Source: Candidatus Bipolaricaulota bacterium (GTDB lineage Bacteria; Bipolaricaulota; Bipolaricaulia; M55B111). Taken from it: a stretch of DNA of 64,000 nt. The stretch spans positions 44,940 to 108,939 of the forward strand of contig JAGYME010000001.1 in the NCBI GenBank assembly GCA_018400715.1, written 5' to 3'. Each line of letters starts with the position of its first letter. The stretch's first letter is position 1. The notes under the pieces are model-generated. The model worked only from the letters and a program-made list of their open reading frames with translations, did no database searches and was not told the DNA's origin. Made by a program: the position numbers and the translations under genes. Positions 37,002-54,987 of this stretch are shown piece after piece.

Positions 37002-37002
37002 A

Positions 37003-41624: not shown

Positions 41625-42968
41625 ATGACAAAAAATAGCCTAAAGTTGATTATTGGTTTAACGCTGGTAACGCTGCTAGCGATGCCGTTTGCAGCGTCAG
41701 GCGAGGATGTTGACTGGAATGCGCCGAATTCTATCGAAGAGAGAATTATCGGGCCGAATTATCAGCTTCCGGAGAACTGGGAATCTTTGGTAGAGGGAAC
41801 CGACGAGATAAGCCACTTTAACTACGGTGCTATGGAGTACGATCCAGCGACGGAGAGAAACGGAGACATCTTCGAGGCACTAACGGGAGTCAAGGTTATT
41901 CACCAGGTAGTCTCCTTTAACGACATGGCACAGAAGATTGCGACCACGCTACTCGGAAGGTCACCAAACCCCGACCTCTTTCAGATTGAGAGGAACTACG
42001 TGAGAAACGCCCGAGCCGGCAACCTGGTAAACGTCGACGAGCTTTGGTCTGAAGAAGCATGGACTCACTATCCTGACTGGGTTAAAAACGACATCGAGGT
42101 TGACGGTCACTACTACGCGGTCCCTCAGTTGGGTCAACAGTCAGGCTTTTACTATCGACCGAGCTTACTGGAGGAGGCCGGATACGACGAACCTCCTAAG
42201 ACCAAGGAGGAGCTAGTTGAGATAGCGCAAGCGGTAACGACGGATGACGTCTACGGTTACGGATTCGCCGCCGGTGACAACTTTGCCGCATACGAGAGCT
42301 TCCTTTCCGCCCTCTACATGCAGGATGGACGACTCGTCCACGACGAAAAGCCCGACGTAACTACCGACAAAGCCAAGGCCGCCCTGCAGTTTCTAGTTGA
42401 CCTCGTTCACGAGTACGAGGTGGCTCCGCCAGCGGCTGGTCAGATGAAGGAAGCGGAACTCGGCGACATGTTCGTCGGAGGCAGCGTGGCGATGATGATT
42501 CAATGGGATTATCACTTTGCTCGCGCAACTGACCCGGAACAGTCAACGATTGCTGACGACGTGGAATTCACCGTCGTCCCGAGTTGGGACGAGGACACGA
42601 AAGGTAAAGCACTCGCTGATTTCCAGATATTAGCAATCAATAGCTACAGCAACAACATTCCAGCTGCAAAACTGTTCTTGGACTACATGAGGTCCGAGCA
42701 GGCACTGGCGAACGAAATGATTCTCGAAGGAAACAACAGCTTGGTGTTGGATGTCTTCGATTCCCCGGCTGCGGAAACCGAGATGGACCCGGGTTTCCTC
42801 GAGGCGAAGAAAAAGCTCGCAGGAAGTTCGATGAGGGAGAACTACCCGCACATGGCAGAGGTAGTTGACACCCTCGGTAGTCAGGTAAGGGCTGCAGTAA
42901 CGCAGGCAAAGAGCGTGGACAAGGCGCTAGAGGCTGCACAGAATAACATTGACAAAGTCATGGACTAA
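41625..42968 (+). CDS. ABC transporter sugar-binding protein (SBP family 1)
   Basis: Signal peptide; 447 aa, typical size and composition of CUT1 sugar-binding proteins. Confidence 0.8.
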   Translation: MTKNSLKLIIGLTLVTLLAMPFAASGEDVDWNAPNSIEERIIGPNYQLPENWESLVEGTDEISHFNYGAMEYDPATERNGDIFEALTGVKVIHQVVSFNDMAQKIATTLLGRSPNPDLFQIERNYVRNARAGNLVNVDELWSEEAWTHYPDWVKNDIEVDGHYYAVPQLGQQSGFYYRPSLLEEAGYDEPPKTKEELVEIAQAVTTDDVYGYGFAAGDNFAAYESFLSALYMQDGRLVHDEKPDVTTDKAKAALQFLVDLVHEYEVAPPAAGQMKEAELGDMFVGGSVAMMIQWDYHFARATDPEQSTIADDVEFTVVPSWDEDTKGKALADFQILAINSYSNNIPAAKLFLDYMRSEQALANEMILEGNNSLVLDVFDSPAAETEMDPGFLEAKKKLAGSSMRENYPHMAEVVDTLGSQVRAAVTQAKSVDKALEAAQNNIDKVMD

Positions 42969-42994
42969 TCAGTCAACCTAAACCTTTATGTACC

Positions 42995-43030
42995 GCAAGG
43001 GGGGCAGAATTTCGCCCCCCCTTGCTTTTC
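42995..43030 (+). terminator. rho-independent terminator/attenuator (GCAAGGGGGGC-8 nt-GCCCCCCTTGC-TTTTC) between the SBP and permease genes
   Basis: Perfect 11-bp GC stem and U-tract read directly. Confidence 0.75.
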
Positions 43031-43048
43031 TAAATAAAAAATTGGGAT

Positions 43049-43942
43049 GTGATCGTTTTGCTCTTAGATTGGCTGAATCGACTCTCGCCCGTTCAATTTG
43101 CGCTGATACTGGTTATGCCGAGTATTATTCTGCTGTTTGCCATAATTGGATACCCGTTCGTTAACCTAATATACAGCAGTCTTTCCGCCTACGATATGCA
43201 GCTAACGCCTCACTTTACCGGCGTGAGTAACTATGTCACAGTATTCTCTGATCCCGCCTTCTGGGGAGATTTGGCAAACTCGTTTATTTATACCATTGGC
43301 TCGGTGATTACCTTCTTTCTCGTCGGGTTTGCCGTGGCCCTATCGCTGAACAAAATAAATATTTTTCAAACTCCACTCCGGGGAATTAGTCTTATCCCCT
43401 GGGCCATTCCACCAGTCACCGCAGCGATGATGTGGAGGTGGGCGTTAAATACGCAGTACGGCGTGGTCAACGACCTGCTAATGCGCGTTGGCTTGGTCTC
43501 TCAACCAATTCAGTGGCTGTCAAGCGGAAAACTGGCAATGGGGGTCCTCATATTCGTCGATGCCTGGATCAGGATACCTTTTGTCGCGTTGCTTCTGCTG
43601 GCAGGTCTGAAGGCTATACCGGGGGAGCTCTACGAGAGTGCTTCTATTGATGGGGCTGGCGTATATCAGCGGTTTCGCTATATTACCCTCCCGAACCTGC
43701 GTTACCCGATATCAATCGTCCTCAGCCTGCAGACGATGTTCGCGTTCCGGACATACGCGATTATGTCGGTGTTGACCGGTGGTGGTCCGGGGACGTCGAC
43801 CGAGTTATTGGTCAAGTATATCTACGACTCGGCATTTCAAGCCTACAACTTCGGGATTGCTGCCGCAGTATCCGTGATAATGTTTATATTCTGTCTGATT
43901 TTCGTCGCATTCTACTGGAATGCGCTGAGGATTGAGGTGTAA
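43049..43942 (+). CDS. ABC transporter permease (CUT1, MalF/UgpA-like)
   Basis: 6 TM, EAA-like loop region (ASIDGAGVYQRFRYITLP); GTG start. Confidence 0.8.
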   Translation: MIVLLLDWLNRLSPVQFALILVMPSIILLFAIIGYPFVNLIYSSLSAYDMQLTPHFTGVSNYVTVFSDPAFWGDLANSFIYTIGSVITFFLVGFAVALSLNKINIFQTPLRGISLIPWAIPPVTAAMMWRWALNTQYGVVNDLLMRVGLVSQPIQWLSSGKLAMGVLIFVDAWIRIPFVALLLLAGLKAIPGELYESASIDGAGVYQRFRYITLPNLRYPISIVLSLQTMFAFRTYAIMSVLTGGGPGTSTELLVKYIYDSAFQAYNFGIAAAVSVIMFIFCLIFVAFYWNALRIEV

Positions 43943-43944
43943 CT

Positions 43945-44808
43945 ATGGCTGAGAAAAGAAGTGGACTGTTATCGTGGTGGCGGAACCGTGACAAGTCGGT
44001 CTATTTGGCCTACTTTGTCATTGCCGTTTACCTCTTTTTTGTCCTGTTGCCGTTTTTCTTTACCTTCATTACTTCGATCAAGACGAGCAAGGAACTGACT
44101 ACGACCCCGGTAACCTACATCGTAAAGACGCCGACGTGGCAGCCATATTATTCGGTCCTGTTCGAGAGGGCGTACGGAAAGTACCTTCTAAATACCTTAG
44201 TGGTCTCGCTTTCCGTGGTTGCATTGTGTGCACTTTTTGGTGTCCCGGCTGCCTATGCTTTGGCAAAATACCGGTTGCCGTTCAAGACGGGAATGCTCAT
44301 ATCGACGATTTCGGTGCGGTTAATCCCGCCCATAAGCCTTATAGTTCCGTTCTTTCTGCTGATAAGGGCTATAAATGCGCTAGATTCGCTGCAGTCTCTG
44401 ATTATCGTTAATTTCCTCATGAACCTACCCTTCTTCATCTGGATAGCGTGGGGATTCCTCAAGGAACTTCCCGCCGAACTCGAGGAGGCGGCGTTGATAG
44501 ATGGCTGTACGAGGATTGAGGCGCTGTGGAAGGTCGTTATCCCCATTGCATCGCCGGGGCTAGGAGCGGCAGCGATTGTGAGTTTCTTGTTTACCTGGAA
44601 CGAATATCTCTTTGCTCTGACGTTTACGCAGACGGCTGCGTCCAAGACAATATCCGTGGGAATATCTGACTTCGTTGGCGACGTTTTCGTCCGCTGGAAC
44701 ATGATTTCCGCCGCGGGAATTCTTACTACGATTCCCGCTCTCATATTCGTATTTGCTTTCCAGAAATATATCGTAGAAGGTCTGACGGCCGGAAGCGTGA
44801 AAGGTTAA
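43945..44808 (+). CDS. ABC transporter permease (CUT1, MalG/UgpE-like)
   Basis: 6 TM, EAALIDGCTRIEALWKVVIP EAA motif. Confidence 0.8.
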   Translation: MAEKRSGLLSWWRNRDKSVYLAYFVIAVYLFFVLLPFFFTFITSIKTSKELTTTPVTYIVKTPTWQPYYSVLFERAYGKYLLNTLVVSLSVVALCALFGVPAAYALAKYRLPFKTGMLISTISVRLIPPISLIVPFFLLIRAINALDSLQSLIIVNFLMNLPFFIWIAWGFLKELPAELEEAALIDGCTRIEALWKVVIPIASPGLGAAAIVSFLFTWNEYLFALTFTQTAASKTISVGISDFVGDVFVRWNMISAAGILTTIPALIFVFAFQKYIVEGLTAGSVKG

Positions 44809-44828: not shown

Positions 44829-45842
44829 ATGAAGAGCGTCGTGTTTGAAGAAACCGAGAAGATAAAGTTAGTGGACAGGCCCGTCCCCGAGAGGTCGGAC
44901 GGTGAGGTACTGGTCAAGATCAAGTACGTTGGTATCTGTGGCTCCGACTATCATTCCTACAAGGGGTCCAACCCCTTCGTCAGCTATCCATATACGCCGG
45001 GACACGAGAGCTCGGCGGAGGTCGTCGAAGCTGACACCGACAGCGTTCTCGAAGCTGGAGACACGGTGGTAATCGATCCCGTCCTCTCCTGCGGGGCGTG
45101 CTATCCCTGTTCGGTCGGCAGACCTAACGTTTGCGAGAACCTGCGTGTAATCGGTGCCTCCGCTGAAGGGCTAATGCAGGAATACGCGGTGCTGCCCGAG
45201 AAAAATGTCCATAAGGCTCCGGAAGGGCTAACGTCGCTCGATCTGGTGTTTACCGAACCGTTGAGTATAGGCGCGCAGGCAAACTTTCGTGCAGGTGTCG
45301 AAAAAAATGAGCTAGTGACGGTTATCGGTGCGGGCACCATTGGTATAGCAGGTCTGCTTATAGCTCGCTGGACGAGTGACGTAAAGTCGCTCGTCGTCGA
45401 ACCAAACATCACGAGAAGGGAGATCGTCGAGGACATGGGCGCGGACGTGACGGTGGACCCAACGGAAGATTCTGTGACTGAAGTCCTAGAACGGGAGTTT
45501 TCCCGAAAGAGTTCACCGGTTGTAATCGAAGCGGTAGGCACGGAGGGTACGATAAACCTAGCGCTCGATACCGTCTCTTCAGCCGGAAGGGTCGTCGTTC
45601 AGGGTATTGTCGGAGAGAAGATAACGATAGACTCCGATGTCCTAATAGAGAAAGAAATCGACCTGTTGGGATCGAGGTTGAGCACGAACCAGTTTCCTAA
45701 CGTGGTTAAACTGATGGGAGAGAACGTCGAGGAGCTGCGCCGGATTCCCAAAAAGGGCTTCCCCGTTGACGACATCGAGGACGCCTTTGCTTGCTATGAG
45801 TCACGAAAGGACCTGATGAAGGTTTATTTGGAGTTTGATTGA
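44829..45842 (+). CDS. zinc-dependent alcohol/polyol dehydrogenase (MDR family)
   Basis: GICGSDYHSY...GHESSAEVVE catalytic Zn, C..C..C structural Zn, GAGTIG Rossmann motif. Confidence 0.85.
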   Translation: MKSVVFEETEKIKLVDRPVPERSDGEVLVKIKYVGICGSDYHSYKGSNPFVSYPYTPGHESSAEVVEADTDSVLEAGDTVVIDPVLSCGACYPCSVGRPNVCENLRVIGASAEGLMQEYAVLPEKNVHKAPEGLTSLDLVFTEPLSIGAQANFRAGVEKNELVTVIGAGTIGIAGLLIARWTSDVKSLVVEPNITRREIVEDMGADVTVDPTEDSVTEVLEREFSRKSSPVVIEAVGTEGTINLALDTVSSAGRVVVQGIVGEKITIDSDVLIEKEIDLLGSRLSTNQFPNVVKLMGENVEELRRIPKKGFPVDDIEDAFACYESRKDLMKVYLEFD

Positions 45843-45918
45843 TAAGTAGGAACATTTGCCATTACTAAATGAATAGCGCTAACCTGCATTCCAGAGAGCC
45901 AATCCGAGGAGGAGTTTG

Positions 45919-46719
45919 ATGACGGAGAGAGTGAGTCAATATTCGTATAACGGTATCGGTTTAACCGATAAAGTGATAATCGTTACTGGAGGGCCGACAG
46001 GAATAGGACGTGGAATTACCCTGGCTCTTGCCCACGAAGGGGGTATTCCTGTACCGACAAATCCCTATCGTGATGATGTGGAAGACGTCCTTAGGGTGCT
46101 GGGTGAAAAAGGAGTAACCGGAGTCCCGGAGGTAACGGTTGATGTGACTAGTTCTGAGTCGATCGAGAAACTGAGGGACGCGGTCATGGATGAGTACGGA
46201 AGGATAGACGGCTTGGTCAATTGTGCTGGTGTCCACCTAAAGAAGCCGACCGTGGATACGACGACTGATGAGTTCAACCGGGTTCTGGACGTGCACCTCG
46301 GAGGGACCTTTAGGACATGTAAGGTCGTCGGAGAGGCGATGATAGAACAGGGGTCCGGGAGCATCGTCAACATCGGGTCGATTACCTCGTTTATGGGGAT
46401 GTACCAGGTGTCAGCCTACGGGGCCGCAAAAGGTGGTGTGGTAACAATGACGAAGTCGCTTGCAGGGGAATGGGCCGAGTACGGGATAAACGTGAACGCG
46501 ATCGCTCCCGGATTCATACTGACCGACATGAACAGGACCCTGCTCGACGAGAACGAAGACAGGCTAAACATGATACTAAATAACACACCGATGGGTACAC
46601 TGGGTAACCCCGACGACGTGGCCGGGGCGGCGGTTTTCCTGTTGTCGGACGCGTCGAATTTTATCACCGGCACTTCTATATTAGTCGACGGAGGTTTTCT
46701 CAATTGTTCTTCGCGATAA
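45919..46719 (+). CDS. SDR-family oxidoreductase
   Basis: TGGPTGIGRG, NCAG, YxxxK motifs; GAGGAGGAG RBS. Confidence 0.8.
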   Translation: MTERVSQYSYNGIGLTDKVIIVTGGPTGIGRGITLALAHEGGIPVPTNPYRDDVEDVLRVLGEKGVTGVPEVTVDVTSSESIEKLRDAVMDEYGRIDGLVNCAGVHLKKPTVDTTTDEFNRVLDVHLGGTFRTCKVVGEAMIEQGSGSIVNIGSITSFMGMYQVSAYGAAKGGVVTMTKSLAGEWAEYGINVNAIAPGFILTDMNRTLLDENEDRLNMILNNTPMGTLGNPDDVAGAAVFLLSDASNFITGTSILVDGGFLNCSSR

Positions 46720-46735: not shown

Positions 46736-47767
46736 ATGAAGGTCGAGCAGTGGAAAAGCCTCTCACGGGCGGCAAGACACGAAAATGAATCACCGATCCT
46801 TGCCCTCATAGTTGATAGCCCGTGGATACCGGATTATTACGGGATAGATCACCTGGACTACTATGTATACCCGGAGATTTGGACGGAGTCGAATCTAGAG
46901 CTGTACGAGCGGTTTGAGGAGATAATCTTTGTGCCCGGCTTCTGGGTGGAATATGGGATGGCTGCCGAGCCGTCAGGTTTCGGTTCCAGGGTCACCTGGC
47001 CATCTGACAGCACGCCCGTACCACACGCGGTGGATGCGGACTTAGAAGTATTGATAGATAACGGACCCCCCAACCCGGAAAAGGACGGTCTAATGGCCTG
47101 GGTCCTTAAGCGCTACGAAGACCTGGAAGAGGAGTTAGCGGGGACTTCCCACCGGGTAAAGATGGTCGCGACCAGAGGTCCGCTGGCGATTGCCTCCTGG
47201 ATACGGGGCGTCGAGGGACTGCTGCTTGACATAAAGAAGACTCCGGATCAAGCCAAGGACCTAATTGAGATCACCACGCGCACGGCCATATCCAGGCTGG
47301 AGGCGCAGATAAACGTTCTCAGCGAGGTGGACGGGATCCTCCTCCTGGACGACATAGTGGGGTTCTTTTCACCTGAGGATTACCGGGAATTCTGTGAGCC
47401 GTATCTTCAGAGGATATTTACGCGTTTTGACGATAAACTGCGGATATATCACAACGACTCCGAGGTAGGAGGCATACTGGGCGAAATGGCTGAACTTGAC
47501 ATGGACGTATTTAACTTCTCTCACAAGCTTGATTTCAACGCGGTGAGAGAGGCCTCGTCCGGGCGCTGGGCGTTAATGGGGAATATTCCCCCCGTGGAAG
47601 TGCTGACCAGGGGGTCCCGTGAGGAAGTGATATCCGCGGTAGACGATCTACTGGAGAGTCTCCAGGATACGTCAGGCGTAATCCTCTCTGCCGGTGGTGG
47701 GGTTGCACCCGACACTCCGGTGGAGAACGTTGAAGCCATGCTGGAAGGGTTCAGGAAGTATGCATGA
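46736..47767 (+). CDS. uroporphyrinogen-decarboxylase (URO-D)/MtaA-like family protein, paralogue 1
   Basis: 343 aa TIM-barrel family protein with URO-D-like length and composition; tandem with two paralogues. Confidence 0.65.
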   Translation: MKVEQWKSLSRAARHENESPILALIVDSPWIPDYYGIDHLDYYVYPEIWTESNLELYERFEEIIFVPGFWVEYGMAAEPSGFGSRVTWPSDSTPVPHAVDADLEVLIDNGPPNPEKDGLMAWVLKRYEDLEEELAGTSHRVKMVATRGPLAIASWIRGVEGLLLDIKKTPDQAKDLIEITTRTAISRLEAQINVLSEVDGILLLDDIVGFFSPEDYREFCEPYLQRIFTRFDDKLRIYHNDSEVGGILGEMAELDMDVFNFSHKLDFNAVREASSGRWALMGNIPPVEVLTRGSREEVISAVDDLLESLQDTSGVILSAGGGVAPDTPVENVEAMLEGFRKYA

Positions 47768-47798
47768 ACCTATTTTGACCTATTGACAGAGGAGAACG

Positions 47799-48950
47799 AT
47801 GAACTCCAGACAGAGAGTGCTAACTGCAATTAATCACAGAGAGCCGGACAGGGTCCCCTTCGACTTTGGAGCGGCCAGTACGTCGGGAATAATCAGGGAC
47901 GCATATCAACAGCTCGCCGACCACCTTAATTACGGGCGAGAAGATATTGAACTTATCGATAAAAAGTATCAGACCGTCCAGCTCGATTACAGCTTTTCTC
48001 AGTTGGCCGGGTCCGACGCGTTTGGTCTGTACCCGTCGTATACCGACGACTGGCAGATTTCGGTGGAAGAGAATGAGCAGGGCGGTACCTTCTTAATCGA
48101 TGAGTGGGGAATCAGGTACAAGAAGATGAAGGACGGTTCGTTTATCAACTATCGAGGACCGCTTGAGGATACCTGGCTTGACGATGGTATAGAGACTCTC
48201 AAATGGCCGGAGCCCGTCGATCCCAGGCGTTTAACGCGGGTCCACGAAAGGTTGGAAGGTCTCCCCGAGGATGAAGGCACGACGAAGGTGATGAACTTCT
48301 TTACGCAGGGACTTTTTGAACTCTCCACCTGGCTTGTCGGCTACGAGGAGTTTCTCACGGGGCTCATCCGTCAGCCCGAGAAAGCCTGCTCGTTGCTGGA
48401 CCGGCTGGTGGAGATCAAGAAAGTTTTCTGGGGATGGGCCCTTGATGAGCTTGGCGGCTCCATCGACGTGATAAAACAGAACGATGACCTCGGAGAAAAG
48501 CAGAAACCGTTGATCTCACCCGACCTCTATAGAAAGTATCTCAAGCCGAGACATAAGGAACTTCATCGGTTCATAAAGAAGCACGCTGAAGGGGATGTAT
48601 ACATCCTGTTTCATTCGGACGGCTCGATTCTGGATTTGATAGAGGATTTCATCGAGACCGGGGTAGACATACTCAACCCCATTCAGTTGAGTGCGAACAA
48701 GATGGACCCTAAGGTGTTGAAGAAGAGGTTTGGCGACTCCGTCGTTTTCTGGGGCGGGGGGATAGACGTTTCAACAGAACTTCCCGCAAAGACTCCGTCC
48801 GAGATCAAGGATATCATCAAGAGACGGCTAGATATCTTTGCTCCTGATGGTGGTTTCGTTTTCGCCCCGACCCAGTCGATTCAAAGCGACGTACCTCCCG
48901 AGAACGTTGTAGCGACCTGGGAAGCGGTAAAGGAATATGGCAAATATTAG
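47799..48950 (+). CDS. URO-D/MtaA-like family protein, paralogue 2
   Basis: 383 aa; ...FWGGGIDVSTELP... block shared with paralogue 3 (FWGGGCDTQGTLP). Confidence 0.65.
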   Translation: MNSRQRVLTAINHREPDRVPFDFGAASTSGIIRDAYQQLADHLNYGREDIELIDKKYQTVQLDYSFSQLAGSDAFGLYPSYTDDWQISVEENEQGGTFLIDEWGIRYKKMKDGSFINYRGPLEDTWLDDGIETLKWPEPVDPRRLTRVHERLEGLPEDEGTTKVMNFFTQGLFELSTWLVGYEEFLTGLIRQPEKACSLLDRLVEIKKVFWGWALDELGGSIDVIKQNDDLGEKQKPLISPDLYRKYLKPRHKELHRFIKKHAEGDVYILFHSDGSILDLIEDFIETGVDILNPIQLSANKMDPKVLKKRFGDSVVFWGGGIDVSTELPAKTPSEIKDIIKRRLDIFAPDGGFVFAPTQSIQSDVPPENVVATWEAVKEYGKY

Positions 48951-48974
48951 AACCTTGGAGGATAGATTTCGTTC

Positions 48975-50105
48975 ATGAATTCAAGAGAAAAGACTCGCGC
49001 TACACTTAACCACGAAAAGACCGACTGCTTCCCGATTGACCTGGGAAGCATAGCCACTACGTTCGAACTGGATGCATACTTTGACCTGCTGGAATATTTG
49101 GAACCGGAAGACTGCAGAGTAAAAATATTTAGGTCCGACCATGTCGACCTAAACCCCTGCGAATATCTGCTGGAGAGGTTTCACGTAGACACGAGATACG
49201 TCCACTTTAAACGCCCTCAGGACCCTCTTGAAGGAAACACTTTCGTTGACGAATGGGGGATAACCTGGACGAAGACTGGATTTTATTTCGACGCAAAGAA
49301 ACCCACCTTCGATGCTCCCGACCTTCATCTCCTGGAGGAGTTCGACTGGCCACACGACATGTGCAGGGACAACGTGGATTACTGGACGGACCGCGCCAAA
49401 GACCTTTACGAAAATACGGATAAGGCGGTAGTGGCAAACGCGATCGGCCTTGGAATTTTTGAGCAGGCGACCTGGATGAGGGGAATAGAGGAGTTCTACA
49501 AGGACCTGTACATCAATGAGAGGTTCGCTGAAAAACTTTTGGAAAAGGTGCTGGAGACTCACATGGAGGTATTCGATCGGTTCCTCGGGGCGGTCGGTAA
49601 ATACGTGGACGCCGTGTGGGTCCTTGATGATCTCGGACACCAGGAGGGCTTGATCGTCTCCCCGGAAAAATACAGGAGGTTGATAAAGCCGAGGCAGAAG
49701 AGGCTATTTGACTTCATTAAAGAACGGGTCGACGCTAGTTTGATCCTGCATTCGGACGGAGCGATAAGGCCGGTGATCGAGGATTTAATTGATATCGGTG
49801 TCGATGCGTTAAACCCGGTCCAGTTCACGGCTAAAGGGATGGACATAAGGGAACTTAAACGGGAATACGGTAACCGTCTTGTCTTCTGGGGAGGGGGTTG
49901 TGACACGCAGGGAACGCTGCCCTTTGGGGGTGAACAGGAGATAAGAAAAGAGGTTAGAGAACAGGTAAAAATGCTTAACGACGGGGGAGGTTTCGTCTTT
50001 GCCCCCGTCCACAACGTTCAGCCGAACACGCCCGCCGCCAACGTCGTCGCGATGATGGAAGAGGCTGTTAAGTGTAGCGAAGAAGGTTCGGGTATGGAAA
50101 TCTAA
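48975..50105 (+). CDS. URO-D/MtaA-like family protein, paralogue 3
   Basis: 376 aa; clear paralogy with 47799..48950 (LNPIQLSA / LNPVQFTA, DGGFVFAP blocks). Confidence 0.65.
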   Translation: MNSREKTRATLNHEKTDCFPIDLGSIATTFELDAYFDLLEYLEPEDCRVKIFRSDHVDLNPCEYLLERFHVDTRYVHFKRPQDPLEGNTFVDEWGITWTKTGFYFDAKKPTFDAPDLHLLEEFDWPHDMCRDNVDYWTDRAKDLYENTDKAVVANAIGLGIFEQATWMRGIEEFYKDLYINERFAEKLLEKVLETHMEVFDRFLGAVGKYVDAVWVLDDLGHQEGLIVSPEKYRRLIKPRQKRLFDFIKERVDASLILHSDGAIRPVIEDLIDIGVDALNPVQFTAKGMDIRELKREYGNRLVFWGGGCDTQGTLPFGGEQEIRKEVREQVKMLNDGGGFVFAPVHNVQPNTPAANVVAMMEEAVKCSEEGSGMEI

Positions 50106-50163: not shown

Positions 50164-50991
50164 ATGAGCGAGAGGATTAATAGTTACGATTTGACGGACA
50201 GAGTTGTCGTAATTACTGGCGGTGCTGGAGTGCTGTGTTCTAAAATAACGAAGGAGCTGGGGAATTCTGGAGCAAGGGTAGCGGCCCTCGATATTGACCG
50301 GGATGGTCTAGACGAGTTAAGTGGCGAGTTAACACAGGCAAGTGTTAAGCACCTGGCGCTCGAGACCGACGTGCTCGACAGAAAAAGTCTGACAGATGCC
50401 GCGGACGTCGTAAAGCAGAGGTTTGGTAAGGTCGACGTCTTAATCAACGGAGCGGGTGGAAACAGCCCGGAGGCCACGACGGGACCGGAGCAGTCGTTTT
50501 TTGACCTCCCCGCGGAGGGCGTGCAGAAGGTCTTCAACCTCAACTTCCTCGGTACCTTCCTCGCCTCACAGGTATTCGGCGAAGTTTTTGCCGAGCAGGG
50601 AGAGGGCGTGATCCTGAACGTCTCGTCGATGAACGCATTCACTCCGCTGACAAAGATCCCTGCGTACTCGGCTGCGAAGGCCGCCGTGAGCAACTTCACC
50701 AGGTGGCTCGCCGTCCACATGTCGCAGAACTATTCCACAGACATCCGGGTAAACGCCATCGCCCCTGGATTTCTCCTCACAGAGCAGAACAGGTACCTGC
50801 TCCTCGATGAGGAGACGGGTGAATTAACCCCCAGGGGAAAGACGATCATCGAGCATACACCGATGGACAGGTTCGGGGACCCGAAAGATCTGGTCTCAAC
50901 GGTCCTCTGGCTGATCGCGCCCGGTTCGGAGTTCGTCCACGGCACGGTTATACCCATTGACGGCGGATTCTCTGCGTTTAGTGGCGTATAG
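50164..50991 (+). CDS. SDR-family oxidoreductase (mannonate/polyol oxidoreductase-like)
   Basis: ITGGAGVLC, NGAG, S...YSAAK motifs. Confidence 0.8.
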   Translation: MSERINSYDLTDRVVVITGGAGVLCSKITKELGNSGARVAALDIDRDGLDELSGELTQASVKHLALETDVLDRKSLTDAADVVKQRFGKVDVLINGAGGNSPEATTGPEQSFFDLPAEGVQKVFNLNFLGTFLASQVFGEVFAEQGEGVILNVSSMNAFTPLTKIPAYSAAKAAVSNFTRWLAVHMSQNYSTDIRVNAIAPGFLLTEQNRYLLLDEETGELTPRGKTIIEHTPMDRFGDPKDLVSTVLWLIAPGSEFVHGTVIPIDGGFSAFSGV

Positions 50992-51004
50992 ACCTGGAGG
51001 TAAT

Positions 51005-52408
51005 ATGAAACGCAATAACGACATCGGGCTGATAGGCATGGCCGTCATGGGCCAGAACCTGGCGTTGAACTTGGAAGCGAAAGGTTACAGCGTCTCGGTA
51101 TACAACCGGACTTCCTCGAGAACGGAGGAGTTCGTGGAGTCACTCGAGGAAGTCCGGGAGATCAACCCTACCTATTCGATCGAGGAGCTAGTCGCGTCGC
51201 TGGCGAGACCCCGCAAGGTAATGATGATGGTCAAGGCTGGTGACCCCGTGGACGCCGTAATAGATGATTTACTTCCCCACCTGGACCCCGGTGACGTCGT
51301 CATCGACGGGGGAAACTCTCACTTTCCTGACACAGACAGGAGGTTATCTGACCTTGAAGATAAGGGGATAAATTATCTGGGGACGGGGGTAAGCGGCGGC
51401 GAATACGGGGCCCTGCACGGCCCCTCGATCATGCCCGGTGGCCACCGCAAGGCCTATGACGAGGTCGGAGGGCTGCTAGAGGACGCCGCGGCGGAGACGG
51501 AGCTCGGCCCCTGCTGTACATACCTCGGCCCGGGTTCCGCCGGCCACTACGTAAAGATGGTCCACAACGGGATCGAGTACGGCGTGATGGAGGCCATTGC
51601 CGAAGCGTACTGGTTTATGCGCGAACTCCTCGAGATGGGTCCTGAAGAGATGGCAGGCGCCTTTGCGGACTGGAACGAGGGCCTAAATTCTTACCTGATG
51701 GAGATAACCGTCGACATCCTCTGTAAAGACGACGAGGAGACCGGTAAACCTCTGATAGATATGATCCTGGACAAGGCGAAACAGAAGGGGACCGGCAAGT
51801 GGAGCGTCCAGTCCTCACTCGACCTTGGAATCCCGATCCCGACGATCACGGCTGGCGTGCAGGGCCGAATCCTCTCCGCCCATAAACGGGAGCGCGAAAA
51901 ACTTGCCGATAGAATCGATTGGAAACTATCCCGGCCGAAAGCTTTTGACCTGGAGTTACTTGGACGAAGCCTTGATCTCGTCACAATCTCTGCCTATGCG
52001 CAGGGAATGAAGCTCCTCTCTGAGGCCTCTGAAGAATTCGATTACGGTCTGGAGTTGGACGAGGTCGCCAGGATATGGATGGACGGGTGTATTATCAGGT
52101 CCCACCTCCTTAAGGAAATAAGGAGGGCTTACTCCGAAGAAGCCGCCCAGGACAATTTGTTTCTGGATGAATCATTTGAAGGGGACCTCAAGAAGGAGAT
52201 TAGGCCGTTGAGGAAGACCGTCCGCGAAGCGAAGAAATGGGGACTTCCCTTCGTCGCCTTCAACAGCACCCTCGACTACCTGGATTCAATGGTCTCGGAG
52301 AAGCTTCCCGCGAACATGATTCAGGCACAGCGAGACTACTTTGGCGCGCACACCTACGAGAGGGTAGACAGGAATGGCCGATTTCACACGGACTGGCTGG
52401 ACGGGTGA
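51005..52408 (+). CDS. gnd: 6-phosphogluconate dehydrogenase (decarboxylating)
   Basis: IGLIGMAVMGQNLALN NADP fold, GxSGGE, HNGIEYG motifs; GGAGGT RBS at the ATG at 51005. Confidence 0.9.
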   Translation: MKRNNDIGLIGMAVMGQNLALNLEAKGYSVSVYNRTSSRTEEFVESLEEVREINPTYSIEELVASLARPRKVMMMVKAGDPVDAVIDDLLPHLDPGDVVIDGGNSHFPDTDRRLSDLEDKGINYLGTGVSGGEYGALHGPSIMPGGHRKAYDEVGGLLEDAAAETELGPCCTYLGPGSAGHYVKMVHNGIEYGVMEAIAEAYWFMRELLEMGPEEMAGAFADWNEGLNSYLMEITVDILCKDDEETGKPLIDMILDKAKQKGTGKWSVQSSLDLGIPIPTITAGVQGRILSAHKREREKLADRIDWKLSRPKAFDLELLGRSLDLVTISAYAQGMKLLSEASEEFDYGLELDEVARIWMDGCIIRSHLLKEIRRAYSEEAAQDNLFLDESFEGDLKKEIRPLRKTVREAKKWGLPFVAFNSTLDYLDSMVSEKLPANMIQAQRDYFGAHTYERVDRNGRFHTDWLDG

Positions 52409-52459
52409 AGGGTATGAGAGAATTTATGCTTCTCAATCACCTACGAGGTGAAGGTCTTT

Positions 52460-53488
52460 ATGTCTACCGATGACGGCAACGCGAGGATCACGGTTGTAAA
52501 CTCCAGCAGCTTCGGGGTGCATTTCCCCTACTGCCTCGACGAGCTGGAGTCGATCGGGGAGGTAAACAGAATAAACGTGCCCCCGGGAATATCCGGCGAA
52601 AGACTCGCCCGCAAGCTCCAGGGGGCGGAATACGTGATCGCCAGCGTGACCCCAGACTTTCCCAGGTCTTTCTTCGAACGGATCGACGACCTCAAGCTGA
52701 TCGCAAGGCATGGAATTGGCTGCGACAACGTCGACCTCGACGCCGCCACGGAGGCAGGCGTTCTGGTTACCAGGGTGTCCGGAGACAGCGAAAGGGACGC
52801 GGTGGCAGAGCTGGCGGTAGCACTGATGACAAGCTGCGTCAGGGACGTCGTCCCCGCGGGGAAGGCTGTCGAGTACGGCCGCTGGGAGAAGAGGTCGGAG
52901 TTCGTCGGACTGGAGATATCCGGCAGCACGGTTGGAGTCGTGGGGTATGGCAACATCGGCAGCCGCGTAGGAGAAATAGCGAAGTGGGGGTTTGGAGCGG
53001 AGGTCTTAGCCTACGACCCGAATATTGCGGACCCCGTAATCCAAAATTGTGGCGTCGAACCCGTGTCATTTGTTGAGGTCCTCTCCAGATCGGACATCAT
53101 CTCGTTTAACGCCTCGCACAACCGGGATAATTACCACTTCATCGGAAAAGAGGAGTTCGGGATGATGAAGGATGGGGTGGTAATCGTCAATACCGCCCGC
53201 GGAGAATTGATCGAAGAGGACCCATTTGCGGAAGCGCTTAAGTCGGGCAAGGTGCGAGCTGCCGGGATAGACGTGATGGAAGAGGAACCGTTGAACGAGG
53301 AGAGTCCCCTGGTCGGCCTGGACAATTTGATTATCCTTCCGCACGTCGGCAGTTACACGGAGAGGTCGCTACGTGAGATGGACGAGAAGATGGTTGAGGA
53401 CGTTAAGCGGGTCAGGGAAGGGCTGAGGCCGGACGAGGTCGTCAACGGTAAGGTATTGAATAGGTCCAACAGGGCGGGAATAGAATGA
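52460..53488 (+). CDS. D-isomer-specific 2-hydroxyacid dehydrogenase (PGDH/glyoxylate-reductase-like)
   Basis: GVVGYGNIGSRVG Rossmann motif and catalytic R/E/H context. Confidence 0.8.
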   Translation: MSTDDGNARITVVNSSSFGVHFPYCLDELESIGEVNRINVPPGISGERLARKLQGAEYVIASVTPDFPRSFFERIDDLKLIARHGIGCDNVDLDAATEAGVLVTRVSGDSERDAVAELAVALMTSCVRDVVPAGKAVEYGRWEKRSEFVGLEISGSTVGVVGYGNIGSRVGEIAKWGFGAEVLAYDPNIADPVIQNCGVEPVSFVEVLSRSDIISFNASHNRDNYHFIGKEEFGMMKDGVVIVNTARGELIEEDPFAEALKSGKVRAAGIDVMEEEPLNEESPLVGLDNLIILPHVGSYTERSLREMDEKMVEDVKRVREGLRPDEVVNGKVLNRSNRAGIE

Positions 53489-54987
53489 GTTCTGTAGTGG
53501 TGGTCGACGTCGGCACGAGTAACGTCAAGGTGGGAGTGGTGAACCAGAAGGGAGAACTGCTGGCTCACGGCAGCAGGGAGCTGCCCGTAGAGCGCCCGGA
53601 GAAGGGAGCGGCCGAACACGACCCCGAAACCATGTTCGAGGGGCTCCTGTCGCTCCTGAAAGAGATAATAGGGGAGAGCAGGAAAGCGGTGGAGGGTTTA
53701 GTACTATCTGGTTATCACGGTGGTTTTCTCCCCCTTGATTCCGAGATGGTGCCGCTCACCGGGTTGATCACCCTCCTTGATACGCGGACGAAGGTCGTCA
53801 TGGACGAATTCGAGCGGGAGTTTCCTATGGAGGAGATATACAGAAAGACGGGCTGTCCTTCGCTCTTCATCTACTCCCTGCCCAGGATTTACTGGCTGCG
53901 GCGGGAAAAGCCGGAGCTGTTTGGAAAAAGCGCCTACTTCAGTGACGTCAAGGGCTACCTGCTCTACCGCCTCGCCGGTAGCTTCTGCACGGAGCCGAGC
54001 GTGGCATCCGCGACCCAGCTATTGAATATAAGGGAGAACGACTGGGACGAAGCCGTCCTGGAAATGGTCGGAATTGATAAAGGGGCTCTTCCCGAGGTCG
54101 TCGACGGAGACAGCGTAGTAGGAGAAGTTAGTCCGGAGTTGGCAAGCGCAACTGGCATGTCTGAGGGGACTCCGGTAATTTCCGGGGTCTACGACGGCGG
54201 TTCGATGATACTCGGAATGGGAGGGTTCTCCGGCGACGTGGGGATATGCAATATCGGAACGACCGCTATGATCAGGACGTCGGCCTCGGAGCCGGTGCTC
54301 GACTCAGACCGGCCCCCCAGACTGCAGACCTACTCCCTCTTACCGGGGAAATGGGCAATAGGCGGGGCCGTAAACAACGCGGGAGTCTCGCTGAAGTGGT
54401 TCCGCGACACACTTTCCATCGACGACGGCTACAAGAGCATAATTGACCGCGCTGAGACCGTGGGGCCTGGCGCCGACGGCGTTTTCTGTCTACCGTTTTT
54501 GACGGGCGAAAGGGACCCACGGGTGGGCAACATGGCGTCCGGCGTATTCTTTGGAATCAAGGATTATCATTCATCGGGTCATCTGAGCAGGTCTATACTG
54601 GAGGGAGTCGCATACAGCCTGCGCATGGTGCTGGAGTCCCTCCGGGATAACGGAATTGACGTCGATTCACTCCGGATCGGCGGTTCCGGGGCCAAGTCTG
54701 ACCTCTGGCCTTCCATCGTTGCCGACGTCTTGAACGTACCAGTAACGAAGTCAATGACTCCGGACGCCACCCTTATAGGTAGCGCGATGGTCGCCTTCAC
54801 CCGACTTGGTGAGTTTTCTTCGCTCGACGAGGCAACCGATAGTATGGTAAGGACGGGTGACGTCTTCACCCCTGAGCATGCTAGACGGAAACGCTACGAG
54901 GAGGCCTACGACTTCTTCGTCGAGTTGATATCGACCATCAGGAACCTCTATCCCACCCACGCGGCGAAGTTTTTGGGAACAGAGTGA
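53485..54987 (+). CDS. FGGY-family carbohydrate kinase
   Basis: VVVDVGTSNVKVGVV N-terminus; 500 aa; 4-nt overlap with the upstream gene. Confidence 0.85.
   Translation: MSSVVVVDVGTSNVKVGVVNQKGELLAHGSRELPVERPEKGAAEHDPETMFEGLLSLLKEIIGESRKAVEGLVLSGYHGGFLPLDSEMVPLTGLITLLDTRTKVVMDEFEREFPMEEIYRKTGCPSLFIYSLPRIYWLRREKPELFGKSAYFSDVKGYLLYRLAGSFCTEPSVASATQLLNIRENDWDEAVLEMVGIDKGALPEVVDGDSVVGEVSPELASATGMSEGTPVISGVYDGGSMILGMGGFSGDVGICNIGTTAMIRTSASEPVLDSDRPPRLQTYSLLPGKWAIGGAVNNAGVSLKWFRDTLSIDDGYKSIIDRAETVGPGADGVFCLPFLTGERDPRVGNMASGVFFGIKDYHSSGHLSRSILEGVAYSLRMVLESLRDNGIDVDSLRIGGSGAKSDLWPSIVADVLNVPVTKSMTPDATLIGSAMVAFTRLGEFSSLDEATDSMVRTGDVFTPEHARRKRYEEAYDFFVELISTIRNLYPTHAAKFLGTE

Follow-up and report, generated by a model that had tools for sequence, protein, structure and literature searches.

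Three tandem URO-D-fold paralogues in a uronate/aldonate operon and their possible role in corrinoid-dependent sugar O-demethylation

MtvB, OdmB, VdmB, MtoB, CdmB, and CmuA, the MT1 enzymes of O-demethylases and dehalogenases with three components, belong to the UroD superfamily (PMC13222342, PMC10418091), and CdmB and MtvB contain no zinc (PMC13222342). MtvB, OdmB, VdmB, MtoB, and CdmB are known to act on aryl methyl ethers or halomethanes; carbohydrates are not among their known substrates. Characterized acetogen MT1 genes usually adjoin their own corrinoid protein gene. Carbohydrate demethylation is carried out by a cytochrome P450 enzyme encoded in sugar-utilization loci, which removes the catabolism-blocking O-methyl group of 6-O-methyl-D-galactose in an oxidative, O2-dependent reaction that yields formaldehyde (PMC6292453). 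A route from mannonate to gluconate or 6-phosphogluconate and on to Gnd has also been published, and its operons contain no URO-D-like gene (PMC3750489, PMC7583248, PMC6978723).

The three URO-D-fold genes of this study, g1 (46736–47767), g2 (47799–48950), and g3 (48975–50105), belong to a 12-gene operon of the window, which is the whole 64 kb stretch of DNA analyzed. All genes of the operon lie on the + strand, with intergenic gaps of −4 to 80 nt and RBS-like motifs at most genes. A GntR/FCD-family regulator (40808–41451; Pfam GntR 66.8 bits, FCD 57.2 bits) is probably the repressor of the operon. ATG 40808 is a likelier start for it than the TTG at 40690 in the ORF list, and a promoter-like TTGACA-16-TATACT is found at 40724–40751. 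A CUT1-type ABC uptake system (41625–44808) follows, composed of a substrate-binding protein (SBP, 41625–42968; SBP_bac_1 108.8 bits) and two permeases (43049–43942 and 43945–44808; both BPD_transp_1), with a GC-rich stem-loop at 42999–43020, 3' of the SBP gene, and no ATPase gene for the transporter within the operon. The ligand cannot be predicted from the closest SBPs of solved structure, which bind trehalose/maltose or sorbitol. A Zn-dependent alcohol/polyol/aldonate dehydrogenase (44829–45842; ADH_N, ADH_zinc_N) has PRK10083 as its top NCBIfam match (240.6 bits, under the cut-off) and is also similar to IolM and L-idonate 5-dehydrogenase. The first SDR oxidoreductase (45916–46719; adh_short_C2 209 bits) resembles KduD, gluconate 5-dehydrogenase, and glucose 1-dehydrogenase, and passes no NCBIfam cut-off (KduD 213.6 bits against 369; glucose 1-dehydrogenase 208.7 against 215).

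Downstream of g3, the second SDR (50164–50991) is of the D-mannonate oxidoreductase/fructuronate reductase type (UxuB/UxaD-like) and passes NF006132 with 368.9 bits (cut-off 281). Gnd, a decarboxylating 6-phosphogluconate dehydrogenase (51005–52408), passes NF006765 with 622.8 bits (cut-off 413); its start is likelier at ATG 51005, which has a GGAGG RBS, than at TTG 50957 of the ORF list. These are followed by a D-isomer-specific 2-hydroxyacid dehydrogenase (52448–53488; 2-Hacid_dh_C 181 bits), for which the NCBIfam matches PGDH, glyoxylate reductase, and GhrB-like all fall under their cut-offs, and by an FGGY-family sugar-acid or pentulose kinase (53485–54987; FGGY_N, FGGY_C) that is gluconokinase/xylulokinase-like (XylB 302.9 bits, GntK_FGGY 277.4 bits, both under the cut-off). 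Pfam and NCBIfam thus recovered every neighbor named in the original prediction: the CUT1 transporter, Zn-ADH, two SDRs, gnd, 2-hydroxyacid dehydrogenase, and FGGY kinase. The order GntR-SBP-perm-perm-ZnADH-SDR-UROD-UROD-UROD is repeated on independent metagenome contigs (L006–L009) at 57–66% identity, and is therefore no chance arrangement. The same type of regulator heads L006 and the g1-family loci L010 and L173.

The operon shares Zn-ADH (aldH-like), Gnd, a UxaD/UxuB-type SDR, an FGGY kinase, and a GntR-family regulator with the published mannonate/gluconate operons. UxaC, UxaE, the LarA-type epimerase GntE, and GH67 are missing from it, whereas related g1 operons also have UxaC, UxaE, and GntE. 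The 2-hydroxyacid dehydrogenase occupies the slot that GntE takes in those operons (cf. PMC7583248), and may serve as a 2-keto-aldonate reductase or carry out a redox C2 epimerization of mannonate to gluconate. The original label of a sugar/polyol catabolic cluster holds for sugar and sugar-acid catabolism, but it is too generic, and the operon is better described as a uronate/aldonate route to 6-phosphogluconate.

The claim of three paralogues of the URO-D/MtaA fold proved accurate, with exact ORFs and mutual homology. All three exceed the PF01208 gathering score of 23.9, with 140.6 bits (E 8e-41) for g1, 66.9 for g2, and 86.4 for g3. g2 and g3 share 33% identity over their full length (E 7e-62), while g1 shares 24% with g3 (E 9e-17) and 21% with g2 (E 2e-10), and so g1 forms a separate subfamily. 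For g1 and g3, MtaA/MtbA is closest in sequence and structure (4ay7; g1 E 3e-11, TM 0.82; g3 E 3e-6, TM 0.65–0.72). The AF2 model of g1 (pLDDT 91.9) matches MtaA best, followed by HemE (TM 0.75–0.80), and the g3 model (pLDDT 93.8) also has MtaA 4ay7 as its top match. The residue check proposed in the original prediction showed that all three proteins keep the His of MtaA's H-x-C zinc motif, whereas the Cys is replaced to give H-x-D, and the second zinc-binding Cys is Gly, His, or Gln. In g1, H239-N240-D241 and S318-A-G-G-G322 are invariant among 21 homologues. The corresponding motifs are FHSDGS and TQSIQ in g2, and LHSDGA and VHNVQ in g3. Most members of the g2/g3 family retain the Cys, which g1, g2, and g3 lack, and a neighbor-joining tree without branch support places the gain of Asp in g2 and g3 as independent events. 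Orthologues of g2 in the syntenic L006 and L009 are 65–66% identical. Apart from these, g2 is closest to Cys-type proteins (45%), some of them partners of g1-type genes in L127, L134, and L144. In L001 and L002, the closest Cys-type relatives of g3 (44%) have a corrinoid protein gene 24–244 bp away.

As originally predicted, no cobalamin-binding gene lies nearby. Pfam scans of 40 window ORFs revealed no B12-binding domain, and tblastn searches of the 64 kb window gave a best E of 0.07 with corrinoid proteins, RACo, MtaB, pterin-type MT2, and homocysteine-methyltransferase MT2 as queries. No cobalamin riboswitch was found in the window. Corrinoid protein, RACo, MT2, MtaB, and a cobalamin riboswitch are absent from the 46 kb upstream and 14 kb downstream, and likewise from those stretches of the syntenic contigs L006–L009 that could be viewed. 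Both ends of the operon fall within the window, so the search for a corrinoid gene just outside it, in the same operon, is moot.

A survey of 160 related loci, with 80 GTDB loci for the g2/g3 family and 80 loci for the g1 family (only 40 of the latter 80 being at least 8 kb long), placed g1–g3 in two large families of sugar and uronic-acid clusters, which are uncharacterized, as the original prediction had stated. Zn-ADH is a repeated neighbor of both. The g1 subfamily is tightly conserved with an invariant YHND, and its neighbors include GH67, UxaC, UxaE, LarA-like proteins, and gnd, with corrinoid protein, MT2, and RACo in L119. GH67 alpha-glucuronidase lies directly upstream of the g1 homologue in L104, L105, L147, and L175, the g1 homologue is followed immediately by UxaC in nine loci, and the order g1-UxaC-UxaE-SDR-LarA-like-gnd recurs. 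The g2/g3 subfamily is larger and occupies sugar loci in many phyla, next to GalK/GalT, fucose and arabinose isomerases, GH106 rhamnosidase, and glycyl-radical enzymes (GRE). The sugars handled by the GalK/GalT, fucose/arabinose isomerase, and GH106 loci occur in O-methylated form. URO-D paralogues often form tandem arrays of three to five that include no corrinoid protein (L014, L127, L138).

The absence of a corrinoid partner had been taken to indicate a non-methyltransferase role (decarboxylation or epimerization, for instance), and the neighborhood survey does not bear this out. Both subfamilies occur beside corrinoid protein, RACo, and MT2 in sugar loci, Asp-type members adjoin such systems at least as often as Cys-type members, and zinc-free MT1 enzymes exist in the superfamily (PMC13222342). 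A small corrinoid protein lies within 10 kb, mostly within 3 kb, in 12 of the 80 g2/g3-family loci. RACo is present in L035, L040, L053, and L060 of this family, pterin-binding MT2 in L053 and L066, and homocysteine S-methyltransferase in L035, L040, and L060. Systems of corrinoid protein, MT2, and RACo were called complete in L119, L053, L035, L040, and L066, where relatives of g1–g3 hold the MT1 position, as do MtvB, OdmB, VdmB, MtoB, and CdmB, with which g1–g3 share superfamily and TIM-barrel fold. In L053, an HTDG-type URO-D gene is separated by 4 bp from the corrinoid protein gene, followed by MT2 and, further on, RACo. In L035, an HTDG-type gene lies 66 bp from the corrinoid protein gene, and a 2-hydroxyacid dehydrogenase and two Zn-ADH genes follow. 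L017, L033, L079, and L036 have three URO-D genes (C, D, and C' types, in this order) before the corrinoid protein gene. In the g1 family, the order is ZnADH-AKR-UROD-g1-CP-pterin MT2-RACo in L119 (CP, corrinoid protein), g1-CP in L136, and CP-RACo-MtaB-GH67-g1 in L105 (MtaB 558.6 bits). The YHND and S[AF]GGG motifs are the same in g1 homologues with and without corrinoid protein linkage.

The reading tentatively preferred here, at somewhat below even chances, is that g1–g3 are the substrate-specific MT1 parts of a corrinoid-dependent O-demethylase for methyl-sugars or methyl-uronates, feeding a route from mannonate/gluconate to 6-phosphogluconate. The substrate of each protein would be an O-methylated sugar or uronic acid, and for g1, a candidate O-methyl-uronate or O-methyl-sugar demethylating enzyme, 4-O-methyl-D-glucuronate is the leading candidate. 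A bound metal or general-acid catalysis in the conserved His-x-Asp/Asp-Asp pocket would make the ether oxygen reactive, and the Co(I) corrinoid of a separate protein would take the methyl group in an SN2 attack. That protein, MT2, and the RACo activase would presumably come from elsewhere in the genome. The demethylated product may be converted to D-mannonate or D-gluconate by Zn-ADH, the two SDRs (one UxuB type), and the 2-hydroxyacid dehydrogenase, then phosphorylated by the FGGY kinase and decarboxylated by Gnd from 6-phosphogluconate to ribulose-5-phosphate. This proposal is supported by the corrinoid associations of both subfamilies, Asp-types included, the zinc-free CdmB and MtvB, the GH67/UxaC genes beside g1 homologues and genes for methylatable sugars beside g2/g3 relatives, the match of the back half of the operon to the published mannonate route, and the MtaA-like folds of the g1 and g3 models. 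Against it, the window has no corrinoid machinery, corrinoid protein linkage is the exception (about 15% of g2/g3-family and 3 of 80 g1-family loci), likeness to characterized MT1 enzymes is remote (g1 and CdmB 9rui, E 9e-4), and the lack of the Cys in all three proteins, with an apparently independent gain of Asp in g2 and g3, could be a sign of changed chemistry. With neither UxaC nor GH67 in the operon, the substrate may be something other than 4-O-methyl-glucuronate, and the corrinoid protein and RACo of L105 can be explained by the adjacent MtaB instead of g1. To our knowledge, there is no biochemical example of a UroD-fold enzyme that demethylates an alkyl, as opposed to aryl, methyl ether by SN2 attack.

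The main rival, which is rather unlikely, holds that g1–g3, and g1 above all, need no corrinoid and split methanol directly off an O-methylated uronate or sugar acid. A possible mechanism is beta-elimination of the 4-methoxy group beside the acidic C5-H of a uronate or C3-H of a keto-uronate, after which the adjacent KduD-like SDR and Zn-ADH would reduce the unsaturated or keto-deoxy product. Such elimination from 4-O-methyl-glucuronate is chemically facile, as in hexenuronic acid formation, and KduD is indeed the top score of the SDR immediately upstream of g1. Methanol release would also fit the very acidic conserved pocket that results from Asp replacing a soft Zn-thiolate ligand. It would likewise fit the family counts, since a nearby corrinoid protein is lacking in more than 90% of g1-family loci and roughly 85% of g2/g3-family loci, among them the window and the contigs syntenic with it. 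Where MtaB, MtaC, and RACo adjoin GH67-g1, as in a few genomes, that system would capture the methanol, as suggested by the MtaB between RACo and GH67-g1 in L105. However, L119, L136, L053, L035, and the Chloroflexia modules pair URO-D proteins, Asp-types included, with corrinoid protein and MT2 and without MtaB, leaving the URO-D protein as the sole MT1 candidate. UxaC, the next enzyme in most g1 operons, uses an intact uronate, and the KduI/KdgK/KdgA set is missing. Elimination is also unworkable on the neutral methyl sugars (Gal, Fuc, Rha) where g2/g3 relatives occur, and we know of no lyase activity in the UroD fold.

A role as cofactor-independent decarboxylases, epimerases, or isomerases of a sugar acid, without any methyl chemistry, is less probable still. 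URO-D itself decarboxylates without a cofactor, tandem arrays lacking a corrinoid protein are widespread, the conserved pockets are polar and Asp/Trp-rich like carbohydrate-binding sites, and the operon has the UxuB-type SDR, kinase, and Gnd but no UxaC, UxaE, or LarA-type epimerase for some steps, which g1–g3 might replace. Yet g1 shares operons with UxaC, UxaE, and LarA-like genes and is thus not their replacement, Gnd already provides decarboxylation, and the repeated corrinoid protein, MT2, RACo, and MtaB neighbors would be left unexplained. The failed HemE score and missing HemE N-terminal motif count against this role as well as against ordinary HemE or MtaA/MtbA (MT2) orthologues placed in a sugar operon by chance, a view that is effectively refuted. 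Orthology is suggested by the Pfam URO-D matches, by MtaA and HemE as top PDB sequence and fold matches, and by public annotation of homologues as 'uroporphyrinogen decarboxylase' or 'MtaA/CmuA family'. However, every NCBIfam equivalog and subfamily score lies far under its cut-off: g1, g2, and g3 score 81, 31, and 47 bits as MtaA (NCBIfam cut-off 400; 8–37% of the cut-offs across MtaA/MtbA models), with replaced zinc ligands, and 62 bits, no match, and 19 bits as HemE (TIGR01464 cut-off 303). The HemE N-terminal motif P-x-W-x-M-R-Q-A-G-R, Arg-rich and substrate-related, is missing from all three sequences when read directly. Three copies in one conserved catabolic operon outside any haem operon, and carbohydrate-related neighborhoods in many phyla, also oppose orthology. 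Coenzyme M metabolism is not expected here, and the catabolic sugar context speaks against a thiol-methylating MT2.

Corrinoid-dependent O-demethylation by g1–g3 would differ from the known MT1 systems in its context of sugar-acid catabolism instead of acetogenesis, and in having three different tandem paralogues with corrinoid protein, MT2, and RACo neither in nor near the operon. It would share the task of the P450 demethylase with an unrelated fold and chemistry, as an anaerobic system that keeps the methyl group on the corrinoid. A literature search on corrinoid-dependent sugar demethylation found no publication. If the proposal is true, these families would represent B12-linked anaerobic removal of methyl groups from methylated sugars, which would be new for carbohydrates.

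The three URO-D-fold genes named in the original prediction are present at exactly the positions claimed, on the + strand: g1 at 46736-47767, g2 at 47799-48950, and g3 at 48975-50105. Their claimed fold and mutual paralogy also hold. Pfam PF01208 matches g1, g2, and g3 with 140.6, 66.9, and 86.4 bits against a gathering score of 23.9, and all pairs match by BLASTP (E 7e-62 to 2e-10). In pairwise searches, g2 and g3 align from end to end at 33% identity (E 7e-62), whereas g1 aligns with each of them at only 21-24% in the C-terminal two thirds (E 2e-10 and 9e-17). Judged by sequence, the trio falls into two subfamilies, with g1 apart and g2 and g3 together. These genes belong to a 12-gene + strand run, which has a GntR/FCD regulator ahead of it, intergenic gaps of -4 to 80 nt, and RBS-like motifs before most of its genes. 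The run comprises a substrate-binding protein (SBP; start 41625), two permeases (start 43049), a Zn-ADH (start 44829), SDR-1 (start 45916), the trio, SDR-2 (start 50164), gnd (start 51005), a 2-hydroxyacid dehydrogenase (start 52448), and an FGGY kinase (end 54987). As called mechanically, the gnd ORF runs from TTG 50957 and so shares sequence with the last part of SDR-2; ATG 51005, which has GGAGG ahead of it and fits the NCBIfam alignment (from residue 20 on), is the likelier start. The regulator probably starts at ATG 40808 and not at TTG 40690. Gene order from the regulator through SBP, both permeases, Zn-ADH, SDR, and three URO-D genes recurs on metagenome contigs L006-L009, where the orthologues are 57-66% identical.

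Promoter and terminator scans of the 40-57.5 kb region gave counts that were not above shuffled expectation (16 vs 12.3 and 18 vs 16.9), and only a promoter-like site of the GntR gene and a stem-loop after the SBP gene were noteworthy. The closest solved structures to SBP are trehalose/maltose or sorbitol binders (E 1e-22 to 1e-14); prediction of the transported ligand from this homology was dropped, as the solved relatives are uninformative. Just upstream of the regulator, an IS200/IS605-type Y1 transposase-like ORF (39323-40195; PF01797, 30 bits) lies at the border of a low-GC stretch (0.44 at 40-42 kb vs about 0.52-0.59 around it). Elsewhere in the window, degradation of polysaccharides as a way of life is indicated by right-handed beta-helix/NosD-like proteins of 709 and 807 aa (7038-9167 and 19793-22216, - strand) and by a protein with FecR and 3-keto-disaccharide-hydrolase domains (9235-11133). 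The interval between the two beta-helix genes contains a second FGGY kinase (14649-16133) and a GFO/IDH/MocA oxidoreductase (16899-17918). At 30618-37725, where GC is the highest of the window (0.57-0.59), a branched-chain-amino-acid-type ABC system (Peripla_BP_6, two ATPases, and a fused permease of 670 aa) stands directly ahead of genes for a 576-aa fumarate reductase/succinate dehydrogenase flavoprotein and its Fe-S subunit, which is an unusual pairing.

The genes around the trio can be related to hexuronate catabolism. SDR-2 scores 368.9 bits with the curated D-mannonate oxidoreductase (fructuronate reductase-type) model NF006132, cut-off 281, and Gnd scores 622.8 bits with the equivalog model NF006765, cut-off 413. 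The FGGY kinase is under the GntK cut-off (277 vs 649 bits). In the published hexuronate branch, fructuronate is converted to D-mannonate, then to D-gluconate or 6-phosphogluconate, which enters Gnd (PMC3750489, PMC7583248, PMC6978723). An example is the T. maritima operon aldH-pelB-gnd-uxaRED-gntEK (PMC3750489); GntE, a LarA-type D-gluconate 2-epimerase, was shown biochemically (PMC7583248), and L. suebicus uses a mannonate kinase together with 6-phosphomannonate 2-epimerase (PMC6978723). The window shares Zn-ADH, a UxaD/UxuB-type SDR, an FGGY kinase, Gnd, and a GntR regulator with these operons. Unlike them, it contains no UxaC, UxaE, or LarA-like gene and has the 2-hydroxyacid dehydrogenase, which occupies the position of the epimerase (LarA-type GntE) in related operons and could epimerize C2 by redox chemistry. 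SDR-2, Gnd, the 2-hydroxyacid dehydrogenase, and the FGGY kinase (50164-52408, 52448-54987) look like a variant of the route from mannonate to 6-phosphogluconate, the inferred end product, and inversion at C2 would proceed through oxidation and reduction. An L-idonate/5-ketogluconate reading of Zn-ADH, SDR, kinase, and gnd is possible but lacks curated support (IdnD, 132 vs 469 bits).

The trio belongs to the UroD superfamily at the level of fold, with PF01208 above its gathering score and a UroD/MtaA-type TIM barrel. AF2 models of g1 and g3 (pLDDT 92 and 94) have MtaA and HemE as top Foldseek matches (E 1e-15 to 1e-16); in this ranking, from a search without CdmB 9rui, MtaA is best or joint-best, HemE is next, and MetE is only remote. 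The NCBIfam models for MtaA, MtbA, the MtaA/CmuA subfamily, and HemE gave weak matches far under their cut-offs. With the HemE equivalog TIGR01464 (302.95 bits), g1 scored 62.1, g3 scored 19.4, and g2 had no match. With the MtaA/MtbA models (cut-offs of 400 bits for NF040654, 235.4 for TIGR01463, and 244 for NF004889), the top scores were 89.4 for g1, 43.1 for g2, and 55.7 for g3, and g1 reached 81 bits with the MtaA model, cut-off 400. Direct reading of the translations revealed in g1, g2, or g3 no P-x-W-x-M-R-Q-A-G-R, the Arg-rich, N-terminal substrate-binding signature of HemE (PROSITE PS00906). The g1 N-terminus reads DSPWIPDYYG without the MRQAGR portion, and g2 and g3 have LNH[RE][EK]xD...P[FI]D[FL]G in this region instead. 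In MtaA, a Zn site of the form H-x-C...C activates the thiol acceptor. The comparison of zinc residues suggested with the original prediction found this site kept in none of the three. The lHiCg of M. mazei MtaA (4ay7) aligns with yHnDs in g1 and lHsDg in g3, and pgCgi, with the second zinc Cys, aligns with agGgv (Gly) in g1 and pvHnv (His) in g3; g2 has FHSDGS and TQSIQ at these positions. As both the curated scores and the zinc and N-terminal motifs fail, it is highly improbable, despite the shared fold, that the trio are true HemE or MtaA enzymes.

The claim that no cobalamin-binding gene lies nearby was borne out by a Pfam scan of 40 window ORFs, which gave zero B12-binding matches. A cognate corrinoid protein (CP; B12-binding_2 plus B12-binding) was found neither in the 64 kb window nor in the available parts of the syntenic contigs L006-L009. 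Searching the window by tblastn with CPs, ATP-dependent corrinoid activases (RACo), MtaB, and both kinds of methyltransferase II (MT2) from related loci gave a best E of 0.07. No Rfam match reached the gathering threshold, indicating the absence of a cobalamin riboswitch. This differs from corrinoid O-demethylase systems, in which methyltransferase I (MT1) is normally encoded with its cognate CP.

A neighborhood survey of both families, as also suggested with the original prediction, placed CP, MT2, and RACo systems beside some homologues. For annotation of the neighborhoods, stop-to-stop ORFs were clustered by BLAST, and representatives of the clusters were scanned against Pfam. A missing neighbor is weak evidence, because short loci are numerous among those from metagenomes. 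The g1 family comprises 91 clusters at 50% identity (E <= 1e-30). Among 21 homologues from many phyla, Y-H-N-D and S-A-G-G-G are invariant, DSPW, EYGMAxEPS, LDD, and ARGP are likewise shared, and the zinc cysteines are never present. The g1 survey covered 82 non-redundant loci (80 from the metagenome scan plus context look-ups), with a median length of 7 kb and only 40 of at least 8 kb. Neighbors included GFO/IDH/MocA oxidoreductases (13/82 loci), UxaC glucuronate isomerase (12), UxaE tagaturonate epimerase and SDRs (11 each), Opp-type SBP_5 ABC systems (8-9), LarA-like proteins (7), Zn-ADH (6), and GH67 alpha-glucuronidase, gnd, and TRAP transporters (4 each). GH67 lies directly upstream of g1 and overlaps it in L104, L105, L147, and L175/L176, and UxaC lies directly downstream in L127, L128, L132, L133, L140, L142, L163, L164, and L171. 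Five loci (L142, L171, L137, L122, and L118) have the gene order g1-UxaC-UxaE-SDR-LarA-like(-gnd) in common as an operon. GH67 frees 4-O-methyl-D-glucuronate from xylo-oligosaccharides, and UxaC isomerizes the free uronate. Standing between these two, the g1-type protein is a natural candidate for removal of the 4-O-methyl group. At the motif level, the window g1 belongs to the same SAGGG subclade as the GH67-linked members.

Pairs of g1-type and g2/g3-type genes occur in L127, L134, L138, L144, L150, and L154; as such pairing is frequent, multi-paralogue arrays like the window trio are a recurring design. A third, divergent URO-D subfamily (about 41 bits with Pfam URO-D in L119 and L127) also occurs beside g1-type genes, possibly as a second methyltransferase or as a subunit that partners them. 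This subfamily lies directly upstream of them in at least nine loci (L119:8901-9950 and L127:4644-5807; also L117, L122, L128, L132, L133, L144, and L165) and is absent from the window.

A small CP is present in 3/80 g1-family loci (L119, L136, and L105), where the usual g1 motifs are kept. L119 is the clearest case, with the classical MT1/CP/MT2/activase layout: an SBP5/Opp ABC system, Zn-ADH, AKR, another URO-D, g1, CP, a pterin-binding MT2, and RACo. In L136, the CP follows g1 after a gap of 36 bp. L105 has the order Opp ABC-CP-RACo-MtaB-GH67-g1, in which a bona fide MtaB (PF12176, 558.6 bits), an MtaC-like CP, and RACo stand directly upstream of GH67 and the g1-type gene (L105:4161-11038). 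The presence of a methanol methyltransferase system among genes for xylan side chains suggests 4-O-methyl-glucuronate as the source of a harvested methyl group or of methanol. L105 is ambiguous, because it ties GH67-g1 to methyl-corrinoid chemistry, yet its CP could serve MtaB while g1 makes methanol.

Homologues of g3 number more than 3,000 and those of g2 more than 6,800. Eighty GTDB loci of this family were surveyed, from groups including Chloroflexota, Planctomycetota, Spirochaetota, Armatimonadota, Verrucomicrobiota, Atribacterota, Halanaerobiales, and Desulfobacterota. Neighbors were counted over 87 non-redundant loci (the 80 GTDB loci, context loci, and the window) and included ABC ATPases (25/87), CUT2 permeases (19), Peripla_BP_4 sugar-binding proteins (15), CPs (14, by clustering and with context loci counted in), Zn-ADH (10), FGGY kinases (9), CUT1 permeases (8), TRAP DctP (6), glycyl-radical enzymes (GRE) with activase (5), GH106 (4), and L-arabinose isomerase (3), as well as fucose-isomerase-like proteins. 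Among the 80 GTDB loci, 12 have a small CP within 10 kb, mostly within 3 kb, and four of these also have RACo (L035, L040, L053, and L060). A pterin-binding MT2 adjoins g2/g3 relatives in L053 and L066, and a homocysteine S-methyltransferase does so in L035, L040, and L060; together with L119 and L105, these loci have MT2 and/or RACo beside the URO-D gene. The homocysteine S-methyltransferases are stand-alone PF02574 proteins that adjoin CP and RACo (L035:19561-20583, L040:7211-8218, and L060:7202-8218), a split MetH-like arrangement through which a substrate-derived methyl group could reach methionine. P0070 and P0047, both 44% identical to g3, have a CP 24-244 bp away, and the P0047 locus is a sugar locus with fucose isomerase, PfkB, and GRE. 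P0244, 45% identical to g2, lies in a locus with double sugar-ABC, GalT, GalK, and CP. An Armatimonadota MAG carries five clustered URO-D-fold genes of Asp, Asp, Cys, Cys, and Asp types (L014:7580-13595) with no CP within 10 kb, and is an extreme partner-less multi-paralogue array.

In a 20-member alignment of the g2/g3 subfamily, the zinc-motif consensus is H-[STCG]-C-G, and H-S-D-G is found only in g2, g3, their syntenic orthologues, and an Actinobacteria homologue (P0119). The idea that the Cys-to-Asp change marks lost corrinoid dependence was rejected, as Asp-types are at least as often CP-linked: among loci that have an Asp-type copy, about 7 of 17 have a CP close by, vs about 9 of 65 Cys-type-only loci. 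Asp-type paralogues regularly form a second member in clusters of the Cys type (L017, L019, L020, L023, L024, L033, L036, L079, and L012), and the Asp-type protein is the primary match in L031, L035, L037, L070, and L073. In L053, an HTDG-type URO-D lies 4 bp from a CP, followed by a pterin MT2 and, farther on, RACo. L035 has a Cys-type URO-D, a hydrolase, an HTDG-type URO-D, CP, a 2-hydroxyacid dehydrogenase, and two Zn-ADHs, an enzyme set resembling that of the window operon. A Chloroflexia module contains a CUT2 sugar ABC system, Cys-, Asp-, and second Cys-type URO-Ds, CP, GRE activase, GRE, and AraA (L017:9953-17026, L033:9944-18422, and L079:10200-17556; Zn-ADH and FGGY then follow in L033). 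Like the window, it has three tandem URO-D paralogues, but a CP is present, so that a B12 methyltransferase set is coupled to a GRE within a sugar locus. By BLASTP and an approximate NJ tree without support values, the g2 and g3 clades lie apart, each inside the Cys-type radiation, with g3 nearest the CP-adjacent L001/L002 group and g2 nearest L012 and Cys-types paired with g1-type genes. Because of these separate placements, g2 and g3 seem to have undergone the Cys-to-Asp change independently of each other, and it seems to have happened elsewhere on at least four further occasions. Consistent with published work, some MT1 enzymes of the UroD superfamily can do without zinc: CdmB and MtvB are zinc-free, and veratrol and vanillate O-demethylases contain zinc (PMC13222342). 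Of the characterized MT1 enzymes CdmB, MtvB, OdmB, VdmB, and MtoB, the sequence comparison covered CdmB (9rui); its match to g1 is weak (E 8.9e-4, 21 bits), and g3 did not match it at E 0.01 or better.

These data can be read in several ways. With a likelihood a little under even, g1, g2, and g3 may be MT1-type methyl-sugar/methyl-uronate:corrinoid methyltransferases, in which a His-x-Asp/Asp-Asp pocket would activate the ether oxygen and CP, MT2, and RACo would be supplied in trans from putative loci elsewhere in the genome. More broadly, and still tentatively, both subfamilies could be the long-missing anaerobic carbohydrate O-demethylases, acting as corrinoid-dependent MT1 across Chloroflexota, Planctomycetota, Spirochaetota, Atribacterota, and other groups. 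The g1 type would demethylate 4-O-methyl-glucuronate, at a step between those of GH67 and UxaC, and the g2/g3 type would do so with methylated galactose, fucose, rhamnose, or arabinose. The methyl group would then pass to a shared corrinoid protein and on to tetrahydrofolate or homocysteine. The window trio would be a derived, all-Asp form that uses corrinoid machinery in trans or free cobamide directly.

The main rival, prompted by the possibility that the L105 CP serves MtaB, is corrinoid-independent release of methanol, for example by beta-elimination from a 4-O-methyl uronate. It accounts for the scarcity of CP neighbors and for MtaB in L105, but it leaves L119, L053, L035, and the neutral-sugar contexts unexplained and is considered unlikely. 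The role proposed in the original prediction, that of a decarboxylase, epimerase, or isomerase acting in a sugar operon without corrinoid partner, is less probable again, since UxaC, UxaE, and LarA-like genes occur alongside g1, and the methyl-transfer neighbors would remain unexplained. The remaining probability lies with functions outside the explanations named.

In a literature search, no paper described URO-D-like proteins from carbohydrate loci or corrinoid-dependent sugar demethylation, and nothing apt on 4-O-methyl-glucuronate demethylation appeared. The sole carbohydrate O-demethylase it returned is an aerobic, O2-dependent P450 (PMC6292453), and the O-, S-, and halogen-demethylases listed in UroD-superfamily surveys include none with a carbohydrate substrate (PMC10418091, PMC13222342). 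On this search, and from comparative genomics alone, what would be new here is a class of substrate for an MT1 of the UroD superfamily, together with an unusual trio that is all-Asp and partner-less.

Glycans of plants, algae, and bacteria carry O-methyl groups that block standard catabolism; the 4-O-methyl-glucuronate of xylan is one example, and methylated forms of galactose, fucose, and rhamnose are others. From this locus and its relatives, two large families with a wide phylogenetic spread, now annotated as 'uroporphyrinogen decarboxylase', emerge as candidates, with concrete and testable substrate predictions based foremost on the GH67-g1-UxaC order. If methanol is instead released without a corrinoid, this would be new chemistry for the UroD fold. 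If carbohydrate O-demethylation by corrinoid-dependent MT1 is true, thousands of misannotations would be corrected, O2-free demethylases would become available for biomass conversion, and demand for B12, C1 metabolism, and methionine metabolism would be tied to polysaccharide degradation in anoxic sediments, soils, and guts.
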